This document shows positions 42,601-63,505 of a stretch of 64,000 nt of DNA, in pieces. The translations under genes were made by a program, and so were the position numbers. The first letter of the stretch is position 1, and every line of letters starts with the position of its first letter. The DNA is from a virus. Under the pieces are notes generated by a model. The model made no database searches. It saw only the letters and a program-made list of their open reading frames with translations, and was not told the DNA's origin. The DNA lies in IMG/VR virus record IMGVR_UViG_3300034110_000188, positions 2,955-66,954 of that record. The stretch is one strand, 5' to 3'.

Positions 42601-45600
42601 GAAATGGCTGCGTTAAAGGATCAGATTAGACTTGAAGCAAGAGCTGCAAGAGGAGCCAAAGCAAACATAAAAGAAAACATCGAGAAAATATCCACACTCA
42701 TCAAGAGTATGGTTACAGCAAAAGGTGACATTAAGCAAAGACATTTAAAGTATATCTTCAATAAACTTGCTAGTACAAACTTAACTAGCGACGAATCTGT
42801 TGACAAGTTATTGGATTATATATTCAAGAAAATGACAGATGCAAATTACTTGAATAAACTTGATGAAATTGAAAAAATCAATAAGGCTATTAAGAATAAT
42901 AAAAACATGGTTGCTGAGATTAAGTACTTGGCAGATATGTTTACTAAAATTGATTTGAGCAAAGTAAGTAATATTGATAAGCATCTTGAGATAGCTAATA
43001 AATTAAAAGAATCTTTAGCTAGATACACTAAGAAAACAGATCCAACTGGAGTTGAGTTTAGAAAGAACGTAAATTACCAAGAGTTGCTTGACTATGTTTC
43101 TAAAAATGAAGATAAGTTAAAAACTAAGATTGAGAAAAGTTTATCTGAGGTTTACGATAAGTTATTTGGTGAAGGTGCTTCTGATGGTATGTCTGATGAG
43201 GATATGATTAAGAATATCAATGAAGCTAAGGCAGATAAAGTAGCTGAGATGCGAGATATTGTTGAGGCTAAATTGGAAGATCTTAAGAACGCAATTGACG
43301 AGGATACTCCAGATATAGTGAAGAAAGCTGTTTCGCTTGATCCAAAGTTAATACCAATTACTGACTTAATTGATATCATCAACGGTATAACTATGTACAT
43401 GGATAATGGAATATTGTCTGGTATGAAGAAGATTGTGGCTAAATATGACGGATTAGAAGCAGCTAATAAAAGTAAGGTTAGGTTTAAGCAGTTAATAAGT
43501 ATTCTTGGTAAAAACGCTTCTATACGTTATAATAATTTGTTTGGATATGTTGATAGTATCCTAACAAAAAAGACTGCAAAAGCTGGAGATGTTGAGCAAT
43601 TAAAAAAAGAATCTGGTTATTCTGATATTGAACTTGGGTACAATAAATCTCAAATTGAAAGAAACAAAAAGGAAGCTGAATATAAAAAGAAGTTTGGTAA
43701 AATAAAAAACTTCAATCGTTCAAACAATATCGTAGAAAGACGAATCATCTCTCATATGCAACGTGAGTTAATGGATTCTGAGAAACAAGGCGAATACTTC
43801 TTAGACAGAAAGAAATTAATAGAAAGCAGTGTCAAAAACTTAAAAGCGTCAAATGATATTCAACTTGTTGAAGAAGGTAAATTATTAGAAGAGTCTGCTA
43901 TTAAGTTAGGTGTTTTAAATAAAGATGGTAGTGTTAATGAAAGCAGCACTATGAATGATATCAATAGCAAAACTCAAAAGTTTAATCTTGATTCTGTTAA
44001 GTATATTCAAGATATGTTTAGCGATATATATGAAGCTTTATATGATCACTCACTTGGTTTTTATAATACTCTTTTAGAAAGAGACGTTAACTATACTCCA
44101 GACGTAATAAGATTAATAGCAAAAGTAGGAACAGATGAAGATGCTGTTAATAAATCAGATTTCTCTAGATTCACAGGTATGCTAGTTAAGAAAGCTGGTA
44201 TATTAATGAAGACAAATAGACCTAGTTCATTAACAGATAAATATATCTCACTTAATTTTGATCAAGATATGTTTGGTGCTTATGAGGCTGCATTACGAGA
44301 TTTATACACATCTGAATATAAACAAAAATTCAATGCATACAGAAGTTCGGATGCGTTCAATGATATAATGGGTAAAGATAAGAATGGAATTTCTAGAGAT
44401 GCTAAACTTGTCAACCAAAGATATGATGCATATGTAAATGTAAAGGAAGGAAACATAGCTCCAGATGACGATACGGATAGAGCAATTAAAAAATTCTTAA
44501 ATACTATTGGAGTATATAACACTGCAATTGCTTTGGGTAGTTTGAAGAATATACTTGCTCAATCTATACCTACTTGGATTGATACTATGGTATCTACTAA
44601 ATCATACTTAAATCCTAAGCGAGCTGGTAATGTAATTATAGATTCTTTTAACCCACAGATATGGGATTTTGTAGAAAGAGCTAATTCGCAAGTTGCGTTA
44701 CGTGGAAAAGATGCTGTTAGATTTACAGAGACGGTTAAGGATATGATGAAGAAGGAATCTTTTACTGGTGATGTTAAAAAAATATCAGGTAAAATTTTGA
44801 ATTTTATTCCTGAACAAGTAATAAAAATAACTAATCAGTATCCAGATAAGGTAGCGGCTATAGGTACATGGATGGCGTACTATAGAGAGTATTGCGCAAA
44901 AAACAAGATACCTTTAGATTTAGAGAATCCAAATGCTGATGCGGTAAACTATGCTGAAACTAAAACTAAGATACAAATTCTACCTAGTGATGCTGCTGAA
45001 AGAGGTAAGATTGGTACGGAGAATTCTACTGGATACGCGATTGCTAGACAGATGTTATTTCCTTTTAGTTCATTTGCTATAAACTCAAAAAATAGAATTT
45101 ATGGCGATTTATTGAGAATATTTAGAGGTGATACTTTAAATGCTACTAGTGATATGGTGGGTGCCATTGCTGGTGTTACAGCTTTTCAGATGATTAATCA
45201 TTATTGGAAAATATATGTAGGAGGTATTATAGCATCAGCATTATTTGGAGATGATGAAGATGAGGAGGAACTAGCTAAACGAATTAAATCCTCGAAAGCA
45301 AATTCATTATTACAAGGTATTCAAGATTTTGTATCTCCTATGCCTATTCTTGATCCATTGATTCCTGTTTTAGGTAATAAAATAATAAGTGCTTATGATT
45401 TAGGATTACCAGAGGAACAAGAGTGGAATGAATTCTTGGAGAAAAAAGTAACGTCATTAAAGAAAAAACAAAATAAAAGTTACACAGACGAAGAAATTGA
45501 AGAAATGAAAGTTAAGTTCTTCAAGGATAATCAATTCCAATTGAGAGAACAAGATAAGTTAGACTACCTTGACAAGTTTGGATCATTGGGTATATCTTCT

Positions 45601-46008
45601 AAAGTATCGATAGAACTTTTTGATATTTATCAATCAGCTACTACAGGTGTTTATATGACCGAATTCAATGGTAAACCAGTAGAGAAGATATTACCTGAAG
45701 CTGGAAAAGAAAAAATGAAACAAATTCTTTACGCAAAAATAGCTGGATTAACATTTACAGATATAAATAGACAAGCTCAACAAGCATACTATAAAGTAGG
45801 CAAGGAAATGTCATTGACGGCTACTCAAGCTGAGACAGCTGATAAAATCAAAGAATGGTCTGATTTTAATGGATACAAAATGGATGAATATACTTATCAA
45901 GCTATCAAGAATGAATCATCATTAAATAAAGTGAAAGCAGCCATCAGAAAAATGGACGGCATGTCAGTTAAAGAAAAGGATGAGTATATTAAATCACTAA
46001 AGGATTAA
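36676..46008 (+). CDS. giant (3110 aa) polyvalent/ejection protein with two ADP-ribosyltransferase-like segments and an HExxH zincin motif
   Basis: TVFRG...LWVAEDEEVAKNYA...GFDGV; VWHGSP...GEGAQAFGWGLYFT...GIDGIKY...NYVVFD; ETPIHEFSH. Confidence 0.7.
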   Translation: MPDLKQSLRDFVATSNSGNYKTEGEVMSKFPELKGYDITVLRDFVATSNSGKYKNEDEVFAKFPEFKFSTPKKKVPTQVSKPSVGSSGTTETPQKQSSGSLKQDGIYKYQGNLKANYKKENGQWYIDPTGGTKFQPLAQGDVAKRVKVLESQANYDADLTAYNMPNKAQYKPLLLPDNIEGAQAINAKETEKYKDLSKAKVFTGFPTKEENKYRVVDGLWQRSVPNEKGEYSDWSTVKSESSIKALNGQFKQNVNLDVAKTLEEYSKIGFKDINSDLIGGDEGDAVPMLNNKYKSLGFSFREGLGDQMIVTSSIEGVPEITIDMDSWDGAKDAHNAARLKAYLSENALTPQKEKEQAFEKKATGILSKGIYNEPDRVQRNADGTLQSPIMNVPKIDQGFVTEFQQAEKQVKLRNLEKETGLNMDEIQAKKARKATVYGSEKVISGDLTAKSISSQNKVNKVYVDNEIKDINLRDKYTQRLITQYENDKADFEANYDNYSQEEITIKENQLKEKAKELKQSYDQSEKDAKNVDYLIQSQAASTISEKLVKEKTGTVAGAIGRSLTDAIIDSGLGIYQAVGNNVTTRERQAAKDSVAELFTTTTSEFTASEDRSLVTSTLVALTQMTPAIAAGVATGGATAGAAYFWGMSYSNTYDSMEGLDLPEEDRKMMSFAIATATAALESYGLEKITSNKAASGFVAKRVAQVLSGLPKEATMDMMNNAIYTDMKKVVADKLIKVVSKGVIEGGVEVSQSAAEQEIKNLYEQAKKKDVFQEDWGTFGKNALKEFLIGSFAGSTVNAMSGLGTTVKQLSDPVNFGLSKEIANDEDLQDLFKNDLKSKIIQGEITIPEAKAKLRAMGEFKSLLGKVPSNMLENNQREAMKLIEEKQKLQREIEGKEPSLVEDKKQRIVDIDNEMKQLVESESVIPDEISSLNDDEQVIFNVETLEEVPEQFRDRAVKKSGMEVTLRKKILGLPIGKKTKRILGDGYRYELTGKEAKDYAVQERSTEEVLPREQEQAGETGGQREGMGQSLEGQEVAQESAQKVEDLRAQEQAELIEAIPNAEQYMTDGKVDRTKITNPEELKTFDNIYKKYDEIITPLIREVKVEESPKGKITVFRGIGNNVAESENGSTLWVAEDEEVAKNYAGTNEEGLLNVEKIEIEKPTNPIEMPYKLATEVRASDIGNNLRSVVKDLYKNKKISKEKLTEIIALIKDFETKAGNNLELFTAKLNKKESAEAFSKIAQSLGFDGVVQKESATRDGDKTNTYGIFKNKYESILLEETPVVEQVTIDDVKTLDTTDEADVKEVAEESEADQMVRLQNLLAKSNKTFVTKVINILKKTGLAKKVSMLNSKQIENKLKSLGINPDVAKQVSVWHGSPYSFDKFTTAAMGTGEGAQAFGWGLYFTDLESIAKGYAKALASLKYDGKNVDQNDLFEMLFRDLDASNSDFYDYETGKIFNLKKFKEYIDDNFEYFSNLEINEKSPSVTRLMQDYEYRDEKLNQAKENYRKGKEIDFDRIKNQLLENGIDERTANILTSDLKKNHEANINYLRNAIKYLSERDMILKEVVQNERNRTKSQLNYFKLLKNNFDKFDLTRNLYKVSLHKGKQPSEYDWLQWDKELTKDQMKKILDNDIDGSIAEALEDNFSELYDIKTTNELLDTMYNIGLTGSDFYKILSKNIGENPSGKDASLALLNAGIDGIKYPAESISRGATSETARGFNYVVFDENAITIEEQIQFQKALAKKGVELITNGFVHNGEVYINSDNLNPETPIHEFSHLFNSWLKENNKELYNKGIALVKAELDNEKSEIKDVIDYVKSTQPDLKGDALLEEILTQLTGEKGAELIKTNSAIGNWLKEFWKSIKDKLGLLDVTPEQLSKMTVSEFAEASAVQLLKGQKIGSAETGTKFQKATDGMSAADIVRIGKANGIANSVIKKYLKDNGYTNYTSLFPSVKVSPAAKAAKAITKKPAPKMVTVDEMAALKDQIRLEARAARGAKANIKENIEKISTLIKSMVTAKGDIKQRHLKYIFNKLASTNLTSDESVDKLLDYIFKKMTDANYLNKLDEIEKINKAIKNNKNMVAEIKYLADMFTKIDLSKVSNIDKHLEIANKLKESLARYTKKTDPTGVEFRKNVNYQELLDYVSKNEDKLKTKIEKSLSEVYDKLFGEGASDGMSDEDMIKNINEAKADKVAEMRDIVEAKLEDLKNAIDEDTPDIVKKAVSLDPKLIPITDLIDIINGITMYMDNGILSGMKKIVAKYDGLEAANKSKVRFKQLISILGKNASIRYNNLFGYVDSILTKKTAKAGDVEQLKKESGYSDIELGYNKSQIERNKKEAEYKKKFGKIKNFNRSNNIVERRIISHMQRELMDSEKQGEYFLDRKKLIESSVKNLKASNDIQLVEEGKLLEESAIKLGVLNKDGSVNESSTMNDINSKTQKFNLDSVKYIQDMFSDIYEALYDHSLGFYNTLLERDVNYTPDVIRLIAKVGTDEDAVNKSDFSRFTGMLVKKAGILMKTNRPSSLTDKYISLNFDQDMFGAYEAALRDLYTSEYKQKFNAYRSSDAFNDIMGKDKNGISRDAKLVNQRYDAYVNVKEGNIAPDDDTDRAIKKFLNTIGVYNTAIALGSLKNILAQSIPTWIDTMVSTKSYLNPKRAGNVIIDSFNPQIWDFVERANSQVALRGKDAVRFTETVKDMMKKESFTGDVKKISGKILNFIPEQVIKITNQYPDKVAAIGTWMAYYREYCAKNKIPLDLENPNADAVNYAETKTKIQILPSDAAERGKIGTENSTGYAIARQMLFPFSSFAINSKNRIYGDLLRIFRGDTLNATSDMVGAIAGVTAFQMINHYWKIYVGGIIASALFGDDEDEEELAKRIKSSKANSLLQGIQDFVSPMPILDPLIPVLGNKIISAYDLGLPEEQEWNEFLEKKVTSLKKKQNKSYTDEEIEEMKVKFFKDNQFQLREQDKLDYLDKFGSLGISSKVSIELFDIYQSATTGVYMTEFNGKPVEKILPEAGKEKMKQILYAKIAGLTFTDINRQAQQAYYKVGKEMSLTATQAETADKIKEWSDFNGYKMDEYTYQAIKNESSLNKVKAAIRKMDGMSVKEKDEYIKSLKD

Positions 46009-48070: not shown

Positions 48071-48958
48071 TTAATCAATAAATGCTATTTCTTTTTCAGT
48101 TTTATTTCTATCCACTAAATCGTTAATACCGCACATCCCGTTACATTCAAAAAGTGGCTCTACTTTCCTTAACGGAATATCATCTAGGCATTTGTTATTA
48201 GGATAGTCTGGATGCTTAATAAGGAATACAAGAATATCTTTTTTATTCTTCTTATACTTTTCTTTTGCTTCATTCGATTGGTCCTTCAGCATTGCTACTG
48301 GCTCTCCTTTTAAGTCAGTTAATTCATGTTCTAAATCAGCCATGACTTTAAATTTATCTGGAAATTCTTTCTGCATTTTTTGCCAATAGCCAATTCCACC
48401 CTGCACGCATCCAGTAGAGAAACAATTATTATTTTGAAAACCTAATTTATACATTTCTGGTATTTCAATATTAGCTTCAGTAACTATATCTATGCAATCC
48501 TTTTTATCTAGACCAAGCATTAATAATGGATATATAGCTTTTACTCTTTCTCCATGATTCATTGTCATTGATAATGCTCTGTTGAATTCTTTCTTATCAA
48601 ATTCAAAACCGAACACTTGGTGAGTATAATCAGGATTATTTTTCTCCCACTTCTCACGAACTAATCTCTTCAAATTAGTAGAGCAAATAGCTCCAGTAGC
48701 GGTATTCAATGATTTGTGTTTTCTCCACACATCGAATATGTTACCGTACTTTTCTCCAATACCTGTAATTATTTCTATTGGTAGACCATACCAATTTTCG
48801 CAATCCTTTTTGAATCTATAAGTATCTGGGTGTTCATTCTCAGTATCAATCATAATTACTCGAACTCTCCCCCCCCCATATATTTCTATTGATTTCTTGC
48901 ATGCTACAGCTGAAGTTACTCCTCCTGACCACCATGCTATAATGTCTTTATTTTTCAT
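48071..48958 (-). CDS. PAPS-reductase-like (PP-loop) protein
   Basis: WWSGGVTSA PP-loop, C..LKR, NNNC..GCV, terminal C..C; AT-rich. Confidence 0.75.
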   Translation of the reverse strand: MKNKDIIAWWSGGVTSAVACKKSIEIYGGGRVRVIMIDTENEHPDTYRFKKDCENWYGLPIEIITGIGEKYGNIFDVWRKHKSLNTATGAICSTNLKRLVREKWEKNNPDYTHQVFGFEFDKKEFNRALSMTMNHGERVKAIYPLLMLGLDKKDCIDIVTEANIEIPEMYKLGFQNNNCFSTGCVQGGIGYWQKMQKEFPDKFKVMADLEHELTDLKGEPVAMLKDQSNEAKEKYKKNKKDILVFLIKHPDYPNNKCLDDIPLRKVEPLFECNGMCGINDLVDRNKTEKEIAFID

Positions 48959-50993: not shown

Positions 50994-53372
50994 CTAAAAA
51001 CTTAATTGTTTGTCATCTAATCTGATGAATTTAATTGTTTTGCCTGCTGAGTTACGTGACGTTACTGGTTGGTTTCCTGTGAAGTAAACTCCGTAGCTAT
51101 CTAGCCATCTGTAGAACCTTGCTTGAGGTAAGTTGTATCTACCATACCTACCGTAGTCAGGATATTTCTCAGTGAAGTCGTTGTACATGTCAGTCATCTG
51201 GTACTGAGCGTTAGCTGTATTTGTTCTGTGGTTCTCTTTGTCTGTACACCACTCGTAGAACTCGAAGCACGTATCAGCAATAAACTTACGCGCCTTGATG
51301 TTACGGAACTCAGCCTTAAGTAGTCCAGACTGAAGGTACCTCATTAGGCAACCAATCATGTAGTTGTCGAACCTGTTCCACTCATCTTTGTCCCACTCAA
51401 CGAAAAGTTGTCGTTTGAACTCATCCTGTGGCGTGTGGTTGCGGTTGAAGTACTGTCTGAACTCAATCTCCCACTTACGTCGCTCGAATGAATTACCGCT
51501 ACCTTTAATCGCGTAGTTTGTAGTGATTACAATCTTTGGACTCTGCTCGAATGGAACCTTGATCGCGTCACGGTTCTTCTTCTCAAGTGTAATTCCCTGC
51601 GTAATTATACTGAATAGTCGCTCAAAATCAAAATTTTTCACAACATCATCATACACAAGTATTTGCGTGTCTGCCGATACAGTTTGGTACGGGAACGTCT
51701 TGTCAAACTTAAAGTCCTTACCGTCAATATCAACGAGGCGCTTGATTTTAGCTACAGCTGTAAAGAACAAACCTTTACCTGTCCCTCCCTCTGGATTCTC
51801 TGAAATCTTCTCATCGTTAATAATCACAGCTGGACAGTACGAAGCTGGCTTGTATCCATGCAATAAGAATCCTACAGTTGACTCAAGTGATTTTTTTGAC
51901 TCATCGTTACCGCTCACAAGCTTCACGAAGTTCTTAAAGTCACACTCATCCGTCTCTGATGGCACGTAATCTCTATCGATGATCTGCTTGCTCCACACAA
52001 ATCCGCTAAGGTCAATGTAGTCAATTGGTTGTATCTCAGTTGGTGTGATCTTAAGCGCACAGTTTCTAAAGTAGATAAAGCTCTCAGATACTGAGTCAAC
52101 AACAAACTTCGGGTCGAGTCTGTCAAGTAGCGACAAGAAATCTTCCTTAAAGTAACGCGTCTTATCCGCAAAGTAGTTATAGATTGACTTGTTCTCAAGC
52201 TTATCCAAGTAGTCTAACGTGAATACCTTGATGTCATCTTCCGTAGCATCGTCAATTAAGTTATTCTGAATGCGAACAAACACGAACTTATCTGATCCTG
52301 CATGGTAGTACTTATAGAACCCGTTCTCCTGTAGAAACTTCTTGAACAGGTGATGCACTGGCGATACGACACCTTTGCTGTTTATGCTCCAGAACTCATC
52401 CTCACTGTTCAGTTCAATGATGTGCTCAATTACTTTCTTCACTTCGTTCTTGTCACCTTTCGATACGTACTCAATGATACTATCGATTGGTTTACCTTGC
52501 TTCACGTCACGTTTAATCGCGTCAAGTCGCTCAGTATCTTCGTAGAACTTAGTGTTGTGTATGTGAGTCTGTTTGTATGCTGACTCTACTGTAGTCTTAA
52601 TCTCCACCCAAGGGAAATCCTTTTGCTCGAACTGACGTACAATAACCTTACACATGTCCTCTGATATACCAAACTCATTCATAGCCTGGCACAGTACGTA
52701 TAGGTTGTGGTTGCGAGATCCGTCTACTAAACCGAACTTCGCTTCCCACCACACGAGTAGTCTGCGTGAGATTTCGTCTGTCTCCTCTAGCTTAAGTGTA
52801 GGAACCGTATCAACGATACTTAACTGCTCGTACTTCTCTGTAGGTAAGCTATCCCAAAGTGCAGAGAATTCATTTACATAAATGTCTGGGTCATATGATT
52901 CGTAACATACACGAGATATGTCCTTTGTTGTCTTATCAAATTCAGCACAAGCGTAGTACTCTTCAAGTGCTGCAAAGTATTGTTTGTGATTTTCTATTGA
53001 CGGAGGTATTCTAACAACTAGTTTTAGTCCGTCGTTGCTTGGAGATATGAAGCAAGCAAATGTGTACTTGTCTTCAGATAACTCTTCTTTCTTTTTGTCT
53101 CGTAACTTATTATTCTTGAATCCATCGAAGTCAAGACATATAAATCCCGAGTGTTGCTCAATTGCTTTTGCCTCACGTCTAAGAAACTTACCTGAGAAAC
53201 ATATCGCAGGTAGGTCCTTCTTTAGTTCGTTTCGGTCTGACTTCTCACCCTTGTCTCGGATACGCTCAACGAGTTCCTTTGACGCACCATTTCTAATGCG
53301 TTCAAACTCCTCGAGTATATCCCTGAAGAATGGAGTGCTTGTCTCCTTAATATTCTTAAATACAGTTATCAT
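50994..53372 (-). CDS. primase-helicase (BT4734/VirE-N-like, PriCT-like and SF3 helicase domains)
   Basis: LKKDLPAICFSG, ICLDFD, FISPS.DGLK, KDISRVCYESYDP, G.RN..L, GGTGKG, VITTN. Confidence 0.85.
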   Translation of the reverse strand: MITVFKNIKETSTPFFRDILEEFERIRNGASKELVERIRDKGEKSDRNELKKDLPAICFSGKFLRREAKAIEQHSGFICLDFDGFKNNKLRDKKKEELSEDKYTFACFISPSNDGLKLVVRIPPSIENHKQYFAALEEYYACAEFDKTTKDISRVCYESYDPDIYVNEFSALWDSLPTEKYEQLSIVDTVPTLKLEETDEISRRLLVWWEAKFGLVDGSRNHNLYVLCQAMNEFGISEDMCKVIVRQFEQKDFPWVEIKTTVESAYKQTHIHNTKFYEDTERLDAIKRDVKQGKPIDSIIEYVSKGDKNEVKKVIEHIIELNSEDEFWSINSKGVVSPVHHLFKKFLQENGFYKYYHAGSDKFVFVRIQNNLIDDATEDDIKVFTLDYLDKLENKSIYNYFADKTRYFKEDFLSLLDRLDPKFVVDSVSESFIYFRNCALKITPTEIQPIDYIDLSGFVWSKQIIDRDYVPSETDECDFKNFVKLVSGNDESKKSLESTVGFLLHGYKPASYCPAVIINDEKISENPEGGTGKGLFFTAVAKIKRLVDIDGKDFKFDKTFPYQTVSADTQILVYDDVVKNFDFERLFSIITQGITLEKKNRDAIKVPFEQSPKIVITTNYAIKGSGNSFERRKWEIEFRQYFNRNHTPQDEFKRQLFVEWDKDEWNRFDNYMIGCLMRYLQSGLLKAEFRNIKARKFIADTCFEFYEWCTDKENHRTNTANAQYQMTDMYNDFTEKYPDYGRYGRYNLPQARFYRWLDSYGVYFTGNQPVTSRNSAGKTIKFIRLDDKQLSF

Positions 53373-53375
53373 AAT

Positions 53376-53555
53376 TTAACTTCCGCAATATAAACAACCG
53401 TCCTCATCGTCATCTAACTCTGGGTTAGTTTCGATCTCTGGGTTGAGCTGTTTCTTTAATTCATAAATCTGTTGCATTATCTCTCCATCCTTGAAGATAT
53501 CACCCGTAAGTTTTGATTTTAGCTTTTCAATTTCATCTTTATTTGGTTGTTTCAT
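53376..53555 (-). CDS. small acidic protein ending CLYCGS (59 aa)
   Basis: Manual translation MKQPNKDEIEKLKSKLTGDIFKDGEIMQQIYELKKQL...DDDEDGCLYCGS*. Confidence 0.7.
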   Translation of the reverse strand: MKQPNKDEIEKLKSKLTGDIFKDGEIMQQIYELKKQLNPEIETNPELDDDEDGCLYCGS

Positions 53556-53707
53556 TGTTCTTGTTGTTTAAGTTCTTCTATTAACTCTAAAAATTCTTTT
53601 AATGGTAATTTACCCGTTTTAACCCATTCATAAATTAATTTATACTTTTCTGAATTAAGGCTCAAAGCATTTAGTTTTTCTGTTCTGTCAATTTTTGTTT
53701 GTGTCAT
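53552..53707 (-). CDS. micro-cassette gene (51 aa) ending KQQEQ
   Basis: Manual translation MTQTKIDRTEK...KLIYEWVKTGKL...ELKQQEQ*. Confidence 0.7.
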   Translation of the reverse strand: MTQTKIDRTEKLNALSLNSEKYKLIYEWVKTGKLPLKEFLELIEELKQQEQ

Positions 53708-53949
53708 TGTTCTTGTTGTTTAGTTATTTCTAATTCAGAAAGTAAAGAATCTGCAAATTGCACGGATAAAATAGGCAATTGTTTAAGAATATTTTCAGTT
53801 ATTAAAGCATTTGAGCAACTTGCTAACAACCCTTGCATTGCTAATCCTGCAAAGTATTCACGTTTTGTTAAACCTTTAGAATACTCTTGAACTTCTCCAC
53901 TATGTGTGTAAACTAAATGTGGATTTATTGGTTCGTTTTCGTTTTTCAT
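53704..53949 (-). CDS. micro-cassette gene (GLTKREYFA..AMQGLLA family) ending KQQEQ
   Basis: ORF track; widespread phage motif. Confidence 0.75.
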   Translation of the reverse strand: MKNENEPINPHLVYTHSGEVQEYSKGLTKREYFAGLAMQGLLASCSNALITENILKQLPILSVQFADSLLSELEITKQQEQ

Positions 53950-54092
53950 TGTTCTTGTTGTTTAAGGATAAAGGCTAATACTATTGATACTAAAAAAATA
54001 GTTCCACCTAATCCTTGATTAATTACTGCACCAATGTATAATCCGAAAAACATTACTACTACTATCATTAATGCTATTATATCTTTTCCCAT
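53946..54092 (-). CDS. micro-cassette gene, two-TM membrane peptide (48 aa) ending KQQEQ
   Basis: Manual translation MGKDIIALMIVVVMFFGLYIGAVINQGLGGTIFLVSIVLAFILKQQEQ*. Confidence 0.65.
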   Translation of the reverse strand: MGKDIIALMIVVVMFFGLYIGAVINQGLGGTIFLVSIVLAFILKQQEQ

Positions 54093-54360
54093 CTTATTCT
54101 GATTTAAGTTGTCCTAATCTTGAATTTATAAGTTTATGTAATCTTACATGGTCATCTTTTTTACCTAAAAAAAACGCAAGATTTACATCATCTTCACTAA
54201 ACCCTTTCTGTTGCTTTTCCATTTCCAACTTTGCATAAGCCAAGCACAAACAATCTTCAATTGCTTTAAATGAACCCGTGTAAAGTTTTGTTTCTTTGAG
54301 TTGTTCCATTTCTGAAATCAATTCCCGTACTGCTGTTTGTTTCATCTTATTCTGATTTAA
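54090..54360. repeat. two exact 18-bp direct repeats CATCTTATTCTGATTTAA at gene junctions
   Basis: 54090-54107 and 54343-54360. Confidence 0.95.
54094..54345 (-). CDS. micro-cassette gene (MKQTAV...MEKQQ type) ending LKSE
   Basis: ORF track; bounded by the 18-bp repeats. Confidence 0.7.
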   Translation of the reverse strand: MKQTAVRELISEMEQLKETKLYTGSFKAIEDCLCLAYAKLEMEKQQKGFSEDDVNLAFFLGKKDDHVRLHKLINSRLGQLKSE

Positions 54361-54557
54361 AAGTTAAATAATACTGCTAAAAGTGTAACAGATAAAAGTA
54401 TTGTGCTAATCATGTAAAATTTATACATTCTTTCATACTTTTTTAATTCTTTTCCTATTTCTGTGATTTCAATATCTGTTATAGGTCTTCCTCTTTGTTC
54501 TTCCCTATTTTTTTTGATATATTCATTAAGCATTTTTTTTGTTTTTATTAATTTCAT
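54357..54557 (-). CDS. micro-cassette gene with C-terminal TM helix
   Basis: ORF track; starts within the 19-bp repeat and ends within the 18-bp repeat. Confidence 0.65.
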   Translation of the reverse strand: MKLIKTKKMLNEYIKKNREEQRGRPITDIEITEIGKELKKYERMYKFYMISTILLSVTLLAVLFNF

Positions 54558-54850
54558 TGTTCTTGTTGTTTAGTTATACTTTTATGTTGTTCAATTGTTA
54601 TAGATGTTTGTTTAACCACACAAACTCTATCGCTCGATCCAAATGGGAGCAAGTAGTGAGCGTCAAATGACTCACTGAATAGTACGCTTGTGTCGTGGTT
54701 ATCTAATACGTTTAACTCATCAAAGTTCGCTACTGTGTACTTAACGTTGTCGCTAATCACTATCCAACCTTCTTTGGTGTATAGCGCGCGACCAAATAAA
54801 AAGGGGAGATTATCTCTCCCCACTTTACTCTTAGAATGGAGGCTCAGCAT
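54554..54850 (-). CDS. hypothetical protein ending ITKQQEQ (start uncertain: 54850 or 54907)
   Basis: ORF track; ends in the 19-bp repeat. Confidence 0.55.
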   Translation of the reverse strand: MLSLHSKSKVGRDNLPFLFGRALYTKEGWIVISDNVKYTVANFDELNVLDNHDTSVLFSESFDAHYLLPFGSSDRVCVVKQTSITIEQHKSITKQQEQ

Positions 54851-55136
54851 CTGATACAGTTGCTTCAACTCTGAATGCGTCAAGCGTGTTGAAGTACTTA
54901 ACTTCACCGTCTTTTGGACTAACCCACTCGCGCCCTTTCAAACCGAAAGAAATCTCGCACTCATCACCTTCTTTAACTCCGTCAAGTAACGTAACGTTTT
55001 TTTGCGATAACTGGAACGAGACAAGTTGCTCGTAGTTACCATCTTGAATTGACAATACAAACTCTCTCTTTGAGAATTTATCTGACACTTGTACAGTGTC
55101 TCCCTTAACTTTAAGGGTTCCTTGAACTTTAAACAT
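54831..55136 (-). CDS. DUF3127-family OB-fold ssDNA-binding protein
   Basis: VSDKFSKREFVL...V.FQL...F.L.GREW...YFNTL.AF; acidic PF tail; start moved to ATG 55136. Confidence 0.8.
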   Translation of the reverse strand: MFKVQGTLKVKGDTVQVSDKFSKREFVLSIQDGNYEQLVSFQLSQKNVTLLDGVKEGDECEISFGLKGREWVSPKDGEVKYFNTLDAFRVEATVSDAEPPF

Positions 55137-55854
55137 TGAACTTTGATTTATATTCGTAATAGTATTCTGACGCAAGTTTACCTTTAGCGTCAAACATTTT
55201 TATATCTTCTTCTGTTAATTCTACATCAAACGACGCAACACGTAACTCCAACGGTAAGTCACCACATTCGTGCAACGATAAGTCTTCGTATGCTGGTATC
55301 AATTCCTCTGGAGTATCTACCAATACATACGCAACTTTACCTTTAGTCCAGCCTTTCATATAGAGGTAGCATTTCACTTGCCACTCGTACTGAGCATTCT
55401 TTGGGTCCTTGTAGTGCTTAATGAAACTCTTCTTGTCTGTAGCTGTCTTGATATCGATAATCATTTCATTATCGTAGTCAATTATATCTGGGTGACCCGT
55501 CCAAAACTCTGTACTTAACTCTTCGTCAGACTTTACAAAGTTAGTAAACCAAAGTGAATTAACAATACCTATTGACTCATCTTCGCACATAGTTCCTTTC
55601 TGAGTTCTATAGCTACTGAACGACGAAGTATATTGCCATATCTCAGCATCAACCGACTCTTCGATGAAAGACTTAGCACCAGGAGTAAGCTCTATTTGTG
55701 CGTCGCGTTTCTTAATCAACTCGTCTCTAGTCTCTGCTTGCTTATCAGTTAGCTTAATCTTCATCATCAACTCATTCAACGTGCGATGTTGAGCTTCAGT
55801 CAATCCATGACTACCAGCCATGATTGAGTACGCACTACTTGCTCTGGACTTCAT
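55129..55854 (-). CDS. YqaJ/lambda-like PD-(D/E)xK exonuclease
   Basis: RAS, KG...E, GHPD, IDIK, YEWQVKCY. Confidence 0.8.
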   Translation of the reverse strand: MKSRASSAYSIMAGSHGLTEAQHRTLNELMMKIKLTDKQAETRDELIKKRDAQIELTPGAKSFIEESVDAEIWQYTSSFSSYRTQKGTMCEDESIGIVNSLWFTNFVKSDEELSTEFWTGHPDIIDYDNEMIIDIKTATDKKSFIKHYKDPKNAQYEWQVKCYLYMKGWTKGKVAYVLVDTPEELIPAYEDLSLHECGDLPLELRVASFDVELTEEDIKMFDAKGKLASEYYYEYKSKFNV

Positions 55855-56311
55855 CTAATTGTTTGATTTGTTCGTCAGTTAATATTCTTGTGCTAAGGAT
55901 TTGTTCCTTAGTCCACGTCCCGTCTTGTACAGCCTTGATCGCTTTAGGGAAGTCCTTGTCGCTGATTGGTGTCTTACGTGGCGCAGGTTTGTCGCGCTTA
56001 ACTCTAATTGCGTCAACCATGTCGCCGTCCTGTACCGAGCGTACCTTAGCTGTTATCAACTCGATTTCCTTACCGACCCACTTAGTAAAGTCAGGTGTAC
56101 CAACCGCACTTGCAATTGCCTTCATGTTAGTTGAGTTAGCCATAAGAGGTTTAGGTAAGTCACTAAACTCAATTACAATTTTCTCAACACCTTGTAGCTC
56201 AGAAATTTTCTTCTTGCTAACTGATTTTATTTTACCAATCAAGCTACCACCTGTTGGCACGTCCCATGCACCTAAGTACGGTGATGGCATTAATTCTCTC
56301 CAATGATTCAT
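55835..56311 (-). CDS. putative ssDNA-binding/annealing partner of the exonuclease
   Basis: HWR...YLGAWD...KPL..N.TN...W.GK.I.L...DAIRV; directly upstream of the exonuclease. Confidence 0.5.
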   Translation of the reverse strand: MNHWRELMPSPYLGAWDVPTGGSLIGKIKSVSKKKISELQGVEKIVIEFSDLPKPLMANSTNMKAIASAVGTPDFTKWVGKEIELITAKVRSVQDGDMVDAIRVKRDKPAPRKTPISDKDFPKAIKAVQDGTWTKEQILSTRILTDEQIKQLDEVQSK

Positions 56312-56321
56312 ATTATTTAAT

Positions 56322-56546
56322 TTACCAAGATTCAACATTATTAATACAGTAGTCATCACCAGGATGAGCATTCATCCAATCGCCTTCGCTCAAGTAAAAT
56401 GTCTTAACATTTTGTGAGCAACTGTTCTTAATTACTACTGAGTAATCTGACACGTTATCGCTTTGTATAACACCGCAGTTACAATTTTCTTTTTCGCAAG
56501 ATGTCATCCCGATGACAATTACTGCTAACATAATTAACTTTTTCAT
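56322..56546 (-). CDS. small Cys-rich lipoprotein
   Basis: GMTS-C lipobox; CNC...C...C. Confidence 0.7.
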   Translation of the reverse strand: MKKLIMLAVIVIGMTSCEKENCNCGVIQSDNVSDYSVVIKNSCSQNVKTFYLSEGDWMNAHPGDDYCINNVESW

Positions 56547-56547
56547 A

Positions 56548-57228
56548 TTATTTGATTTTATTTAGATACCATATTGCTTTGTTGATGTCTTGCTTGAAGT
56601 CATCACCTGGCTTATCGCCAGCTCTTGAAATGTATTTGAATGCATTGAGTAGGCAGAAGCTCTCGAACTTTTCTTGACCAAACATGTCAATCATAATCTC
56701 CCATACTTCCTTGTCACCTTTCTTGTAGTGATCGGGTTCAACGAAGTTGTATTCTTTTTGTTCACTAACTGGTTCTTCTATAAACTTACTGTCAGAAATT
56801 ACATCGTCGCAGTTTCGAATTGGATACTCCGAGTAAGTAATCGTTTTATCTTCCCAAGCGATGATTGACTCTATTTTCTTATCCTTCCAATCTGTTGGTT
56901 TGATTTCTTTACCAGTTGCCCAAATATATCCAAGTGCGCCGAGTTTATGTAAAACAGCGAACTTAAAGTCAGGTACATTTATTTTGTATACTATACCGTC
57001 AGCGTCGTTGTTCTGAATAATAAAGTCTAGTTCATCAATTGCTTCTAAGCCATAGTTAATACTACTCCATGATATAGTTTTTTCATGTACTATAATTGAC
57101 TTGATGTCATCAGAAGGAGGTGTCTTTGGATCTATAGGATTCCCTTGATTCCATCTATATCCAAGTTGCTTTAGTTTGAATAGCAAGGCATATAGATAAC
57201 CGTTGTTTATATTAATTTTTTGTTCCAT
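56548..57228 (-). CDS. DUF3310 (T7 gp1.7/SaV-like) domain protein with duplicated N-terminal module
   Basis: PDHY...FCLLNAFKYISRAG.K...DINKAIWYL; LGY.W..G twice. Confidence 0.75.
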   Translation of the reverse strand: MEQKININNGYLYALLFKLKQLGYRWNQGNPIDPKTPPSDDIKSIIVHEKTISWSSINYGLEAIDELDFIIQNNDADGIVYKINVPDFKFAVLHKLGALGYIWATGKEIKPTDWKDKKIESIIAWEDKTITYSEYPIRNCDDVISDSKFIEEPVSEQKEYNFVEPDHYKKGDKEVWEIMIDMFGQEKFESFCLLNAFKYISRAGDKPGDDFKQDINKAIWYLNKIK

Positions 57229-57261
57229 GCTGTAAAAATATTTAATGTTAATTGAATTAAG

Positions 57262-57444
57262 TTATTTTTTCTTATTTTGTTTATAATCTAAGTAAAATCC
57301 CGTAGCAACTATTAAGTTCATTCCCATAGATGCAATCACCTCGTGCAAGTCAGCGTAAACGTTTGTGCTTAAGTGAACGTGACCAACTACCCAGAATGGA
57401 ACCGACAAGTTCTGCGAGATCCAGATGATGGTGAACCTTAACAT
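57262..57444 (-). CDS. small membrane protein
   Basis: IWISQNLSVPFWVVGHVHLS; hydrophobic. Confidence 0.6.
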   Translation of the reverse strand: MLRFTIIWISQNLSVPFWVVGHVHLSTNVYADLHEVIASMGMNLIVATGFYLDYKQNKKK

Positions 57445-57545
57445 TACAGTACGTAACTAAGGACCAACCACGGACCAAACATGTACAGTAGCGACATTAA
57501 TATCGCAAGTAGTACACCGAATGTTTTATCAAGTATGTTTCTCAT
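57444..57545 (-). CDS. membrane micropeptide (33 aa)
   Basis: Manual translation MRNILDKTFGVLLAILMSLLYMFGPWLVLSYVL*. Confidence 0.45.
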   Translation of the reverse strand: MRNILDKTFGVLLAILMSLLYMFGPWLVLSYVL

Positions 57546-57705
57546 ATAACTTGTGTAAAAGTTTACCCATTGCTAATGGAAATATTACCATACAGATGCA
57601 TGCATAGAAAATAAGTCCTATTACTTTTTGCCACCAGTGATGGAGTTTATCGAATCCACTCAATGAAAAGAATGTAAATGCAAAACTTAATGCGAAATAA
57701 ATCAT
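57529..57705 (-). CDS. membrane peptide (58 aa)
   Basis: Manual translation MIYFALSFAFTFFSLSG...KVIGLIFYACICMVIFPLAMG... Confidence 0.45.
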   Translation of the reverse strand: MIYFALSFAFTFFSLSGFDKLHHWWQKVIGLIFYACICMVIFPLAMGKLLHKLYEKHT

Positions 57706-63184: not shown

Positions 63185-63505
63185 TTATCTATAAATTCCA
63201 CTTAATACGAATGCAGCCAGTGCCACGACCGCCACAATTATCATTTCAATACGTTCTCTTTTCATCTTATTTAACTTTAAAAATTATTAATAATAATACT
63301 ATAATCGCCATAGTATATGCGTAAAGTACGCCAATTGATGCCTGTCTTTTCATCTTAGTTTGATTGAAATTATTGATACTATTGCACCAAGCATACTTAG
63401 TGCAAATAACCCCGCGTAAATACGCCCTAAATTAACGCTACTCGTTAACATTACTAATAAGCATAACATTGCTAATAGTAAAAAAATTAATGTGATTGTT
63501 CTCAT
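63185..63505 (-). CDS. three tandem hydrophobic micropeptide ORFs (63350-63505, 63267-63353, 63185-63265)
   Basis: Manual translations of 51, 28 and 26 aa; each TM-like; tightly coupled. Confidence 0.45.

Follow-up and report, generated by a model that had tools for sequence, protein, structure and literature searches.

Exact stop/start junction motifs bound small-gene cassettes in a lake-water phage and in phages with unrelated backbones

Introduction

The notion that short boundary sequences guide the mosaicism of phage genomes is an old one, and clear, quantifiable cases of it are few. Susskind and Botstein are said to have formulated a modular theory, and Clark et al. reportedly described boundary, or "linker", sequences of lambdoid phages in 2001. 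Such linkers are short conserved sequences at gene boundaries; they were proposed to direct homologous recombination between modules with no other relationship. The best case is that of the promoter-early stem-loops (PeSLs) of T4-type phages, on which further work was reportedly carried out by Comeau et al. in 2014. In Arbiol et al. (2010; PMC2839356), PeSLs are presented as mobile regulatory cassettes.

Two other described systems bear on the present locus. The start-associated sequences (SAS) of the cluster K mycobacteriophages have an unproven function that is thought to be translational, according to the passages of Pope et al. (2011; PMC3203893) that deal with them. For initiation without a Shine-Dalgarno (SD) sequence in F. 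johnsoniae, the relevant portions of Baez et al. (2019; PMC6847099) name A at positions -3, -6, -12, and -13 as positive determinants. Here, an array of five small phage genes is described in which all of the junctions are formed by two exact motifs (A and B). These are probably portable gene-junction modules of 17–19 nt.

Results

The DNA analyzed (hereafter "the window") is a 64-kb (64,000-nt) stretch of the 66,954-bp lake-water virus record IMGVR_UViG_3300034110_000188 from IMG/VR. The initial annotation had drawn attention to five unrelated, AT-rich genes of 48–83 aa and held that all six of their junctions were one of two exact repeats, and both observations were confirmed. The five ORFs between the junctions (66, 83, 48, 81, and 51 aa) fall into five separate protein clusters, and the GC fraction of the array is 0.28 (vs. 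0.368 for the whole window). The junctions consist of four exact copies of motif A (TAAACAACAAGAACAATGA, 19 nt), located on the minus strand at 53552, 53704, 53946, and 54554, and two exact copies of motif B (TTAAATCAGAATAAGATG, 18 nt), located on the same strand at 54090 and 54343. No extra copy of motif A was present within the 64 kb at up to three mismatches; 0.08 copies were expected by chance, and four or more were reached in none of 100 shuffles. For motif B, a single three-mismatch site was found (at 63351); 0.24 were expected by chance, and three were reached in 1 of 100 shuffles. Two of the A junctions resemble each other past the core, with 76% identity over 63 nt (repeat family D2).

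All features of the locus lie on the minus strand. Upstream of the array lie a gene for a 178-aa protein (55835..56371; phrog_21613, OB-like fold in the model), an exonuclease gene (55129..55854; phrog_5715, weakly RecE/Cas4-like), and an SSB-like gene that serves as the left-hand anchor (54831..55136; DUF3127, phrog_4932). Directly after the latter comes a terminator-like hairpin with a T-run (54803..54821), and with it the transcription unit or leader of the array begins. The hairpin is conserved in the close relatives L256 and L257; the stem in a third relative, L258, differs in sequence and still seems able to pair. About 230 nt separate the hairpin from motif A copy 4 (54554..54572), which is the first junction of the array and provides the ATG of the 66-aa gene. 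That gene (cassette 1; 54357..54557) is a singleton cluster with no family above the cut-off; its product has a predicted hydrophobic C-terminus and ends ...LFNF* at the first TAA within motif B copy 2 (54343..54360). The 83-aa protein of cassette 2 (54094..54345) takes its tail, ..LKSE*, from motif B, and its N-terminus (MKQTAV..) resembles a large small-protein family of these arrays, yet it clusters apart. Motif B copy 1 (54090..54107) follows, and then cassette 3 (48 aa, hydrophobic; 53946..54092), whose ..KQQEQ* tail comes from motif A copy 3 (53946..53964). Cassette 4 (81 aa, cluster 41; 53704..53949) ends at motif A copy 2 (53704..53722). Cassette 5 (51 aa; 53552..53707) likewise has a ..KQQEQ* tail, and motif A copy 1 (53552..53570) gives its ATG to a conserved 59-aa gene (53376..53555; cluster 38). 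This gene is upstream of the primase gene, is the right-hand backbone anchor, and occurs in relatives both with and without motif A. The primase/helicase-like gene itself (50994..53372; BT4734-like N-terminal domain and DUF5906) is also a backbone anchor.

The tails claimed in the initial annotation stood in part. All four copies of motif A are exact, but of the four proteins that had been assigned the KQQEQ* ending, the first is doubtful at its 5' end: its ORF (54554–54907, or 54554–54850 from the ATG) crosses the terminator-like hairpin, and in the 99% relatives a 1-nt indel closes the frame about 50 nt short of the junction. The KSE* ending encoded by the second repeat holds for the 83-aa gene and not for the 66-aa gene. 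An anti-defense role had also been suggested for the cassettes, and the searches lent it no support. Against Pfam and PHROGs, four of the five had no family, and the 81-aa protein matched only phrog_2201, which is of unknown function; this protein has relatives at 37–39% in Vibrio and Shewanella phages. When the cassettes and the main array families were compared with Pfam, PHROGs, and PDB sequences, none had an informative family, the only matches being DUF7695 and a DnaA-C-like HTH (in two backbone-side families) and phrog_2201.

The anatomy of motif A was examined in a larger set of loci. Conservation is confined to a T plus an 18-mer, beyond which the information content drops away (215 unique contexts); A-rich codons occupy positions 2–5 downstream. 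An ORF of at least 30 codons (median 65) starts from the motif's own ATG in 203 of 218 unique contexts. Upstream ORFs end at the motif in the KQQEQ* frame only (96 contexts), in the TAA frame only (36), in both (10), or in neither (76), and in 142 of the 218 (65%) the motif lies inside the last codons of the upstream ORF. Two of the three reading frames meet a stop codon in each motif, so that most upstream ORFs terminate within it, and both motifs carry the ATG of the next gene, mostly overlapping the stop as ATGA. Array-terminal copies without an ATG were seen in eight contexts. A count of the junction 18-mers at 1,594 gene starts showed two that are abundant, A (165) and B (58), and no others.

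The variants of motif A arise mainly by replacement of C and G with A or T. They do not follow a synonymous-site pattern, and they include stop codons in the KQQEQ frame. These nonsense changes mean that selection acts on the nucleotides rather than on the peptide; peptide-level selection on KQQEQ was therefore rejected. The motifs go with the start codon that follows them and not with the peptide that precedes them. When purifying selection was assessed at junctions with homology in both flanks, the mismatch fraction was 0.085 in the motif and 0.092 in the flanks (23 pairs from all loci, a small and biased sample), and in the same small, biased sample the exact motif was kept in 18 of the 23 pairs, the remainder having lost it by deletion. 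Restriction of this comparison to loci not picked by the tested motif left no usable pairs.

Both motifs have A at all four of the positions -3, -6, -12, and -13. In the 87 called genes of the phage, T occurs at -15 with a frequency of 0.53, A at -14 to -11 with frequencies of 0.54–0.66, and A at -3 with a frequency of 0.59; the resulting genome-wide consensus for the initiation region is a degenerate version of the motif's 5' part. An SD-like word precedes just 4 of the 87 genes (background fraction 0.116). When folded as single-stranded DNA, the six junctions had minimum free energies of 0 to -2.4 kcal/mol (z of -1.2 to +0.7), with the motif unpaired. Judged by these sequence features, the repeat looks foremost like a Bacteroidia-type translation initiation region that is A-rich, unstructured, and SD-less, and it would be expected to drive efficient initiation.

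These features raise the question of whether the motifs are purely functional RNA elements, i.e. a very strong initiation or translational-coupling sequence, or an operator for an RNA-binding protein that regulates early genes, comparable to T4 RegA. Selection alone would then keep the motifs exact, and recombination would be incidental rather than the cause of their spread. The strict tie to start codons (203/218), the A at all four determinant positions, the A-rich codons that follow, and the kinship with the genome-wide consensus are all consistent with this explanation. The SAS of cluster K mycobacteriophages, which are the closest analogue, are likewise read as a translation signal. The distribution of the motifs and the exchange boundaries, considered below, make a purely functional RNA element rather unlikely, and two discrete, exact classes occur instead of a graded consensus.

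A transcriptional role was also considered, in which the motifs would serve a transcription system specific to phages, as its promoters or start sites, and the mRNAs made would be leaderless and begin at the ATG; the repeated early promoters of the T4-type PeSLs would be the parallel. In favor of this are the exactness of the motifs (about 19 nt), their restriction to phages, their strict orientation, and their placement just upstream of small non-structural genes; the window also contains a 3,110-aa ORF of unknown role. We consider this explanation very improbable. The position of the motif is fixed and takes in the ATG, and in 65% of contexts the motif lies inside the last codons of the upstream ORF. 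Unrelated backbones would all require one polymerase specificity, and the array, with one leader behind a conserved terminator, looks like a single polycistronic unit. A scan of 53200–57600 for sigma-70-type promoters (a class that does not include Bacteroidia-type promoters) yielded 15 sites vs. 14.5 expected, and none was at a minus-strand junction.

The motifs are spread over phages with unrelated backbones and are nearly absent from the sampled cellular genomes. In IMG/VR, motif A was detected in more than 131 loci and motif B in more than 126 (both lower bounds), often as clustered copies. One record of 174 kb (G304; 173,789 nt) has 21 copies of motif A at up to one mismatch, all on one strand, and another of 224 kb (G307) has eight copies of motif B. 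Neither contains the exonuclease of the present phage, whose terminase was found in none of five jumbo records. Among 301 Bacteroidia genomes, motif A at up to one mismatch occurred in seven, as a single copy in each (a control pattern gave 1), and in the genome_contigs set the motif 18-mer was found only as single copies scattered over all phyla. A generic host initiation sequence was rejected on the grounds of this scarcity. It also weighs against the purely functional RNA element: host-class genomes do not use the sequence, so the motif is not simply the optimal host initiation region, and convergence of unrelated phages on the same 19 letters is unlikely unless they share a specific factor, and no such factor was found. 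Most of the cassettes in G304 have few or no relatives in the sample, so much of the motif's spread is unaccounted for by traced cassettes; the placement of the motif before genes with few traceable relatives is a point in favor of the RNA-element explanation. In cultured phages, a blastn search with 6 kb of the locus returned a single weak primase match, and a 35-nt junction query returned only chance-level, A-rich matches (99 records, 100 places, one place per record save one). Literature searches with the sequence strings of motifs A and B retrieved no paper, and keyword searches retrieved nothing relevant.

All records compared are metagenome assemblies, and all loci behind the statistics below, save the primase set, were picked for carrying a motif and thus have an ascertainment bias. 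The initial annotation had predicted that cassette sets and orders would differ among close relatives, that the breakpoints would fall in the repeats, and that the same cassettes would appear in distant phages; the comparisons bear this out. Between near-identical backbones, cassette content is hypervariable: at 99% identity in the primase (L256 and L257), and likewise at 91% (L258), the relatives have other gene sets at this locus, with A, B, and hybrid junctions. The left breakpoints between the window and L256/L257 are within motif A, homology stopping at copy 4. The left junction is of type A in the window and of type B or hybrid in these relatives, so that exchange was not between identical copies. 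The right breakpoint is 19 nt inside the 59-aa gene, counted from its ATG, and the homologue of this gene in L256 and L257 has another junction and another N-terminus. Further breakpoints sit within paralogous genes.

The ends of homology blocks are in strong excess at the motifs. A block end occurs between -21 and +10 at 148 of 194 motif-A small-gene starts and at 413 of 992 other small-gene starts; blocks coming from upstream end at the motif's 3' edge, and those from downstream at its 5' edge. Of the flank homologies, those confined to one side numbered 529 of 552 at A junctions and 164 of 173 at B junctions (ca. 95%) vs. 1250 of 1572 at other tight junctions in the same loci (80%). Junctions without a motif are thus also very plastic, and relatives at ca. 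51% primase identity have plastic arrays without motif A or B; the motifs are therefore dispensable for plasticity. Nothing in these comparisons points to the dedicated shuffling system that had been proposed. For 320 recent homology blocks (internal, 100–700 nt, at least 90% identity), both ends lay in A/B windows, which make up 1.6% of bases, in 31 cases (ca. 0.08 expected), and both lay at other gene starts, whose windows make up 6.5% of bases, in 14.

The same cassettes recur, bounded by the repeats, in distant phages. A 67-aa cassette shared by G304 and the record L079 is 95.8% identical over 239 nt in blastn (94% in a whole-record search), and the identity begins at one motif and ends at the next ATGA; the rest of L079 (4,988 nt) has only matching pieces of 51 nt or less in G304. 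The 81-aa cassette is present in eight locus groups, next to six different upstream neighbor clusters (in the seven groups showing one) and seven different downstream ones (in all eight groups); its tail (..KTKQQEQ*, ..KTKSE*, or ..ELEK*) is set by the downstream junction. Such motif-to-motif blocks of at least 90% identity across unrelated backbones, in which the motif bounds the exchanged unit, are a further point against the purely functional RNA element.

The Logan contigs left some parts uncovered, and they showed peaks of depth in the motif bins as well as joints whose sides were 20–34 nt long; these are features of contigs and do not resolve events within a population. One 100-nt Logan unitig connects 54563 to 53555, with short sides. 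The breaks of Logan contigs at motif copies, the duplicated two-cassette unit at the end of the G304 contig, and the fact that every record is an assembly could point to chimeric joins at short repeats as the source of the mosaic pattern. The final k-mers commonly used by assemblers, however, exceed the length of these repeats (17–19 nt, or up to ca. 25 nt with flanks). Furthermore, the same cassettes with the same boundaries occur in contigs from different samples, and a cassette between two motifs needs two successive chimeric joins. An assembly artifact is accordingly extremely unlikely.

The machinery that might act at the motifs was also sought. That no integrase is present, as initially stated, was corroborated: in the 66,954-bp record, estimated to be 100% complete, no tyrosine recombinase (PF00589; control found in 14 of 14 genomes) or serine recombinase (PF00239; control found in 12 of 14) was detected. 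The exact, short sites that bound mobile single-gene units, and the eight array-terminal copies without an ATG, would suit a dedicated but unrecognized site-specific recombinase or nuclease, in a true integron-like or homing-like system. Given the recombinase searches, the lack of any inverted repeat or hairpin in the sites, the absence of a protein family common to all motif-bearing records among those compared, and the breakpoints that do not fall at sites, we assign such a system a very low probability. The description of the array as integron-like thus fails for want of both an attC-type hairpin and an integrase.

Exonuclease, putative annealing-protein, and SSB genes had been reported next to the array. 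The exonuclease and SSB genes are present; they belong to the conserved backbone and have no particular tie to the motif. Of 231 locus groups with a motif, 55 have a cluster homologous to the exonuclease close to the array. The 178-aa protein occupies the position of the ERF annealase in other motif-bearing phages. Its AF2 model (pLDDT 81.7) had no PDB match at E ≤ 0.001, and only weak OB-fold and SSB-like matches were obtained; its assignment as an annealase was dropped.

Discussion

Taken as a whole, the initial interpretation of this locus is partly supported. On balance, we favor the view that the repeat is a portable linker composed of a stop, an initiation region, and a start, and that it also marks where cassettes are exchanged by homology. 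In such a mechanism, the same linker copies would flank many unrelated small accessory genes in co-circulating freshwater phages; since identical copies flank unrelated genes, they are the sole homology that such genes have in common. Copies that recombine or anneal through this homology, whether they lie in the same genome or in two genomes that co-infect a cell, could join any upstream gene to any downstream gene with both remaining translatable. The crossovers might be carried out by phage exonuclease and annealase functions or by host RecA. Nineteen nucleotides are few for homologous recombination, which is a point against this mechanism; phage annealases may be able to use such lengths. 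Single-gene cassettes would in this way be gained, lost, reordered, and moved across lineages, and the exchange itself may uphold the exactness of the motif.

A bolder proposal, which we advance only tentatively, is that A and B are community-wide standard connectors. The 17–19-nt linker would itself be the unit of selection, with a few exact types sweeping the accessory genes of freshwater Bacteroidota phages that are unrelated to one another and whose sequences range from ca. 30-kb contigs to 224-kb records. The result would be an integrase-free, distributed exchange network that moves micro-genes for host takeover or counter-defense, each join terminating and re-initiating translation. If this is true, a commoner linker would provide more recombination partners for the genes that it flanks.

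A linker that is minimal, exact, and countable across unrelated phages makes the mosaicism idea directly testable. It also connects gene exchange with the unusual SD-less initiation of Bacteroidota, and it offers an easy sequence tag by which mobile accessory micro-genes could be retrieved from uncultured freshwater phages. These genes would be the likeliest to serve in host takeover or counter-defense.

Among the described systems, PeSLs are similar in several respects. In Arbiol et al., as at the present locus, repeated regulatory motifs that include the upstream stop and the downstream start are found just upstream of small ORFans in hyperplastic regions; insertions, deletions, and replacements between close relatives sit at the motifs; and recombination between copies is proposed as the vector of modular shuffling. 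PeSLs are described there as longer and composite, with a sigma-70-like promoter, a stem-loop terminator, and an SD sequence. The motifs here are 17–19 nt in length, without structure, SD, or a match to a sigma-70-type promoter (Bacteroidia-type promoters being outside the scan). A terminator-like hairpin occurs just once, ahead of the array and outside the repeat, and the motifs are exact and common to phages with unrelated backbones. Mini-circles have been shown for PeSLs, whereas the present evidence comes from assembled contigs alone.

The SAS, according to Pope et al., are likewise exact repeats, short and asymmetric, that all point the same way and immediately precede the starts of non-structural genes. 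The upstream stop is sometimes inside the repeat, the genes belong to different families, and host genomes virtually lack the sequence. SAS are, by that account, 13 bp long, positioned 3–7 bp before the start, built on an SD core, and limited to one phage cluster; motifs A and B include the ATG, have no SD, and cross unrelated phage lineages. They also coincide with the boundaries of cassette exchange, which is not reported in the SAS passages. With the Bacteroidia initiation regions, as treated in the relevant portions of PMC6847099, the motifs share A at -3, -6, -12, and -13, an A-run from -14 to -11, little structure, and no SD; the host regions follow a loose consensus, whereas the motifs are two frozen, exact sequences that the sampled host-class genomes do not use.

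As in an integron, the cassettes are single genes in a tandem row, all read in the same direction and with no promoter evident for each; a site recurs between them, and their content varies among close relatives. Unlike an integron, the array has neither an integrase nor an attC-type imperfect inverted repeat or hairpin; the site doubles as a translation start, and exchange is apparently homology-dependent. Lambdoid linkers, finally, are reportedly less exact and limited to one lineage, whereas the motifs described here are exact, abundant, and statistically tied to breakpoints.

Array organization and motif copies

The source virus record is 66,954 bp in length and was rated 100% complete by CheckV; the window covers 64 kb of it. 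A minus-strand gene run spans ~46 kb to 63.5 kb of the window and includes the micro-cassette array (53552-54572, -), the GC content of which is 0.28 compared to 0.368 for the window. Motif A (TAAACAACAAGAACAATGA) has four exact copies, at 53552, 53704, 53946, and 54554, and no further copies were detected in the 64-kb window at ≤3 mismatches. The chance expectation is 0.08 copies, and a count of 4 was reached in 0 of 100 shuffles. Motif B (TTAAATCAGAATAAGATG) has two exact copies, at 54090 and 54343. Together, the six copies constitute every junction of five ORFs (66, 83, 48, 81, and 51 aa) that belong to five different protein clusters.

Two details of the initial annotation required revision. 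The 66-aa gene, assigned a ...KSE* tail, ends in ...LFNF* at the first TAA within its B copy. All six copies had been taken as gene-to-gene junctions; the first A copy (54554) may instead be located in a leader, because the "117-aa" ORF preceding the array crosses a conserved terminator-like hairpin (54803-54821, -) and its frame is closed ~50 nt before the junction by a 1-nt indel in 99% relatives. This hairpin follows the SSB-like gene. In L258, a relative with 91% primase identity, a terminator-like hairpin is kept at ~2590-2625 with a different stem sequence that can apparently still pair, which suggests that the structure is conserved. In a second small-gene run (63257-63369, -), two junctions resemble the 3' half of motif B (..TAAGATGAAAAGA) and may represent a degenerate or related linker class.

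Motif anatomy

Across the 215 unique contexts for which both flanks were complete, information content falls steeply beyond T plus the 18-mer, and the only enrichment left there is that of AA following the ATG and of A as the second base of codons 3-6. An ORF of ≥30 codons begins at the motif's ATG in 203 of 218 unique contexts (median, 65 codons). Termination of the upstream ORF uses only the KQQEQ* frame in 96 of the 218, only the leading TAA in 36, both in 10, and neither in 76. Within loci, 231 copies were exact, 71 had one mismatch, 24 had two, and 17 had three, after which the background climbs. The variants chiefly have A or T in place of a C or G of the motif, and some of the changes create a stop codon within the KQQEQ frame. 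The tail of one protein family varies by junction: ...KTKQQEQ* (A), ...KTKSE* (B), or ...ELEK* (another kind). Given the tie to ORF starts, the variant pattern, and the junction-dependent tails, the object of selection is a nucleotide module linked to the downstream start, with the peptide tails as by-products.

At the ends of arrays in four IMG/VR loci (L067, L128, L068, and L130), motif A copies read ..CAATAA or ..CAATAG and have no ATG. Conserved non-coding sequences follow them, one pair apparently with a short inverted repeat, and these copies may be terminators or other end-of-array elements.

Resemblance to a translation initiation region

For F. johnsoniae, which lacks SD sequences, Baez et al. 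(2019; PMC6847099) describe positions -14 to -11 as A-rich and adenines at -3, -6, -12, and -13 as positive determinants of initiation. Motifs A and B have A at all four of these positions. Upstream of the window's 87 called genes, the frequency of T at -15 was 0.53, that of A at -14 to -11 was 0.54-0.66, and that of A at -3 was 0.59; SD-like words preceded 4 of the 87 genes, compared to a background fraction of 0.116. The motifs are thus exact, frozen forms of the phage's own initiation-region consensus. The array junctions are predicted to be unstructured, and the motif would drive efficient initiation. The initiation signals, together with BT4734-like and DUF3127 domains, point to a member of the Bacteroidota as the host.

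A purely translational or regulator-binding motif, with an incidental role in recombination, would be compatible with these features; we regard it as unlikely, albeit the most credible of the alternatives, and weigh it against the homology boundaries found at the motifs. That the motif is a phage-specific promoter yielding leaderless transcripts is very improbable.

Distribution

At least 131 IMG/VR loci contain the 18-nt core of motif A and at least 126 contain the 17-nt core of motif B; many of the loci have 2-5 copies spaced at gene-size distances. Sequencing runs holding the locus were mostly lake and freshwater metagenomes. In fetched 2-kb flanks, 108 of 231 motif-bearing locus groups had A starts, 68 had B starts, and only 5 had both; the window's mixed array is thus unusual. 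The genome_contigs search returned the motif as single copies only, scattered over all phyla, and 7 of 301 sampled Bacteroidia genomes had one copy each (≤1 mismatch; control pattern, 1).

A homolog of the window phage's terminase, at 71-73% identity, was present in 2 of 5 records of about 60 kb and in 0 of 5 records of 174-373 kb. G304, a 174-kb record rated complete, has 21 copies of motif A at ≤1 mismatch, on a single strand in about five clusters, and the 224-kb record G307 has 8 copies of motif B; the window phage's exonuclease is absent from both. Neither motif was detected in ~50 phages having a primase ~51% identical to the window's. At their 861 gene starts, junctions were generically A/T-rich only, and no 18-mer occurred >10 times. 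Since records lacking the terminase or exonuclease carry the motifs while the ~51%-primase relatives do not, motif distribution does not track backbone phylogeny.

Neighboring genes and other features

The exonuclease and SSB-like genes adjoining the array belong to the backbone. In 55 of the 231 motif-bearing groups, a cluster homologous to this exonuclease is situated near the array; it is also found in motif-less relatives. At many other motif loci, the neighbors are a distant exonuclease and an annealase of the ERF family (PF04404, E about 1e-28 to 1e-30). The name "annealing protein" given to the array-adjacent 178-aa protein is unsupported: its model is OB-fold-like with no significant PDB match. 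In many motif-bearing phages, the slot before the exonuclease holds the ERF annealase (L309:526-1050 and L003:67-594 were compared with window 55835-56371, -). The window lineage's OB-fold-like protein (55835-56371, -) is unrelated to it, with only a C-terminal helical tail shared; this looks like non-orthologous replacement.

Elsewhere, a single 3,110-aa ORF (36676-46008, +) directly follows the structural genes and has near its start an 82-nt direct repeat of 83% identity (36696-36777, 36795-36876). Collagen-like 9-nt periodic repeats (GGN NNN NNN) at 14614-14996 (+), within ORF 14347-15819, are probably Gly-X-Y tracts of a fiber or decoration protein. Auxiliary genes include a GroEL-like chaperonin (988-2520, +; phrog_5725, E 6e-121) and a PAPS-reductase-like gene (48071-48958, -; phrog_424). 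In G309, a 65-kb motif-bearing record, the terminase homolog (C1:53239-56427) aligns as two segments (residues 3-295 and 288-737) within one open frame of 1,083 aa. This indicates an in-frame insert of ~320 aa, possibly an intein or inserted domain.

Exchange boundaries across loci

The comparison set comprised 311 sequences (310 loci and the window's 46-64 kb segment) in 276 non-redundant groups; the loci were selected by motif, except for the primase set. A homology block ended at -21 to +10 at 148 of 194 motif-A small-gene starts, compared to 413 of 992 other small-gene starts. Blocks from upstream ended at the motif's 3' edge and those from downstream at its 5' edge; the motif is therefore the shared overlap while the neighbor changes. 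At tight small-gene junctions of motif-scan loci, homology was confined to one flank in 529 of 552 pairs at A, 164 of 173 at B, and 1250 of 1572 at junctions of other types. Of the 320 internal blocks left after de-duplication (100-700 nt, ≥90% identity), both ends fell in A/B windows in 31, with ~0.08 expected (windows are 1.6% of bases), and one end in 112; both ends were at other gene starts (6.5% of bases) in 14.

Members of the window's 81-aa cassette family are found in 8 locus groups, with 6 upstream neighbor clusters in the 7 groups showing one and 7 different downstream clusters across all 8. The largest family (~69 aa; 129 groups) has 59 distinct upstream and 61 distinct downstream neighbor clusters, at A, B, or other junctions. 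The clearest single case of exchange is a 67-aa gene common to G304 and L079, a locus from a record with ERF and exonuclease genes in its backbone. Blastn gave 95.8% identity over 239 nt, and the whole-record search gave 94%; the match spans the upstream motif to the downstream motif's ATGA; the flanks are unrelated. The other 4.7 kb of L079 matched whole G304 only in pieces of ≤51 nt, mostly at motif A copies.

In L001, a locus of G304, a two-cassette unit (80 aa + 67 aa) flanked by motif A copies occurs twice near the contig end (2417-2859 and 3068-3510). This is either a motif-mediated duplication or an assembly or terminal-repeat effect.

Exchange at this locus

L256 and L257 have primases 99% identical to the window's and flanks 93-97% identical at the DNA level. 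The small-gene sets between the SSB-like gene and a conserved 59-aa gene differ in L256, L257, and L258; the junctions comprise A, B, near-variants, and one hybrid (left part of B, right part of A). The homology that L256 and L257 share with the window stops in or at motif A copy 4, and a gene of the MKQTA family that opens the array in L256 is in fifth place in L257. Three observations speak against a simple model: the breakpoint on the right is 19 nt into the 59-aa gene, the left breakpoint has junctions of different types, and breakpoints inside paralogous genes also occur.

All sequence data were assemblies, and a mosaic made of assembly chimeras was considered; we find it the least probable account. 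The population data are weak, as they consist of Logan contigs only; in four studies, close relatives retain both flanks, and contigs end at motif copies. One 100-nt unitig (X7) of flank-like depth connects 54563 with 53555, separated by four other letters; it would be a form without the five cassettes, but its shorter side is only 30 nt.

Proposed mechanism

We favor, with moderate confidence, a portable stop/initiation-region/start module whose copies between micro-genes recombine by homology. Exact copies would flank many unrelated micro-genes in phages that encounter one another in shared hosts. Recombination or annealing between these copies, dependent on homology, would then generate deletions, duplications, reorderings, and inter-phage transfers, and every product would remain translatable. 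The boundary pattern at the motifs is an observation; we infer that 17-19 nt of homology is enough, that exchange preserves the exactness of the motif, and which enzymes carry it out. The motif could alternatively be the site of an unrecognised site-specific recombinase system, to which block ends at a short sequence might also point, but no tyrosine or serine recombinase was found in the phage record, in agreement with the initially noted absence of an integrase, and we hold this to be highly unlikely.

Comparison with known systems

The array is not an integron, to which it had been likened. A literature search for either motif string found no paper. In appearance, the motifs are closest to the start-associated sequences (SAS) of cluster K mycobacteriophages; compared to SAS as described in PMC3203893, they have no SD, contain the ATG, cross phage lineages, and are tied to exchange boundaries. 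In how the system works, the closest are the promoter-early stem-loops (PeSLs) of T4-type phages, described as recurrent regulatory cassettes that lie upstream of ORFans and mediate the shuffling of modules (PMC2839356); the motifs are without the promoter and stem-loop of that description. Repeated regulatory elements that drive modular shuffling are thus already known, and the motifs are a variant of this kind. What is probably new is a minimal initiation-region linker for modular exchange in uncultured freshwater phages, the hosts of which are probably Bacteroidota.
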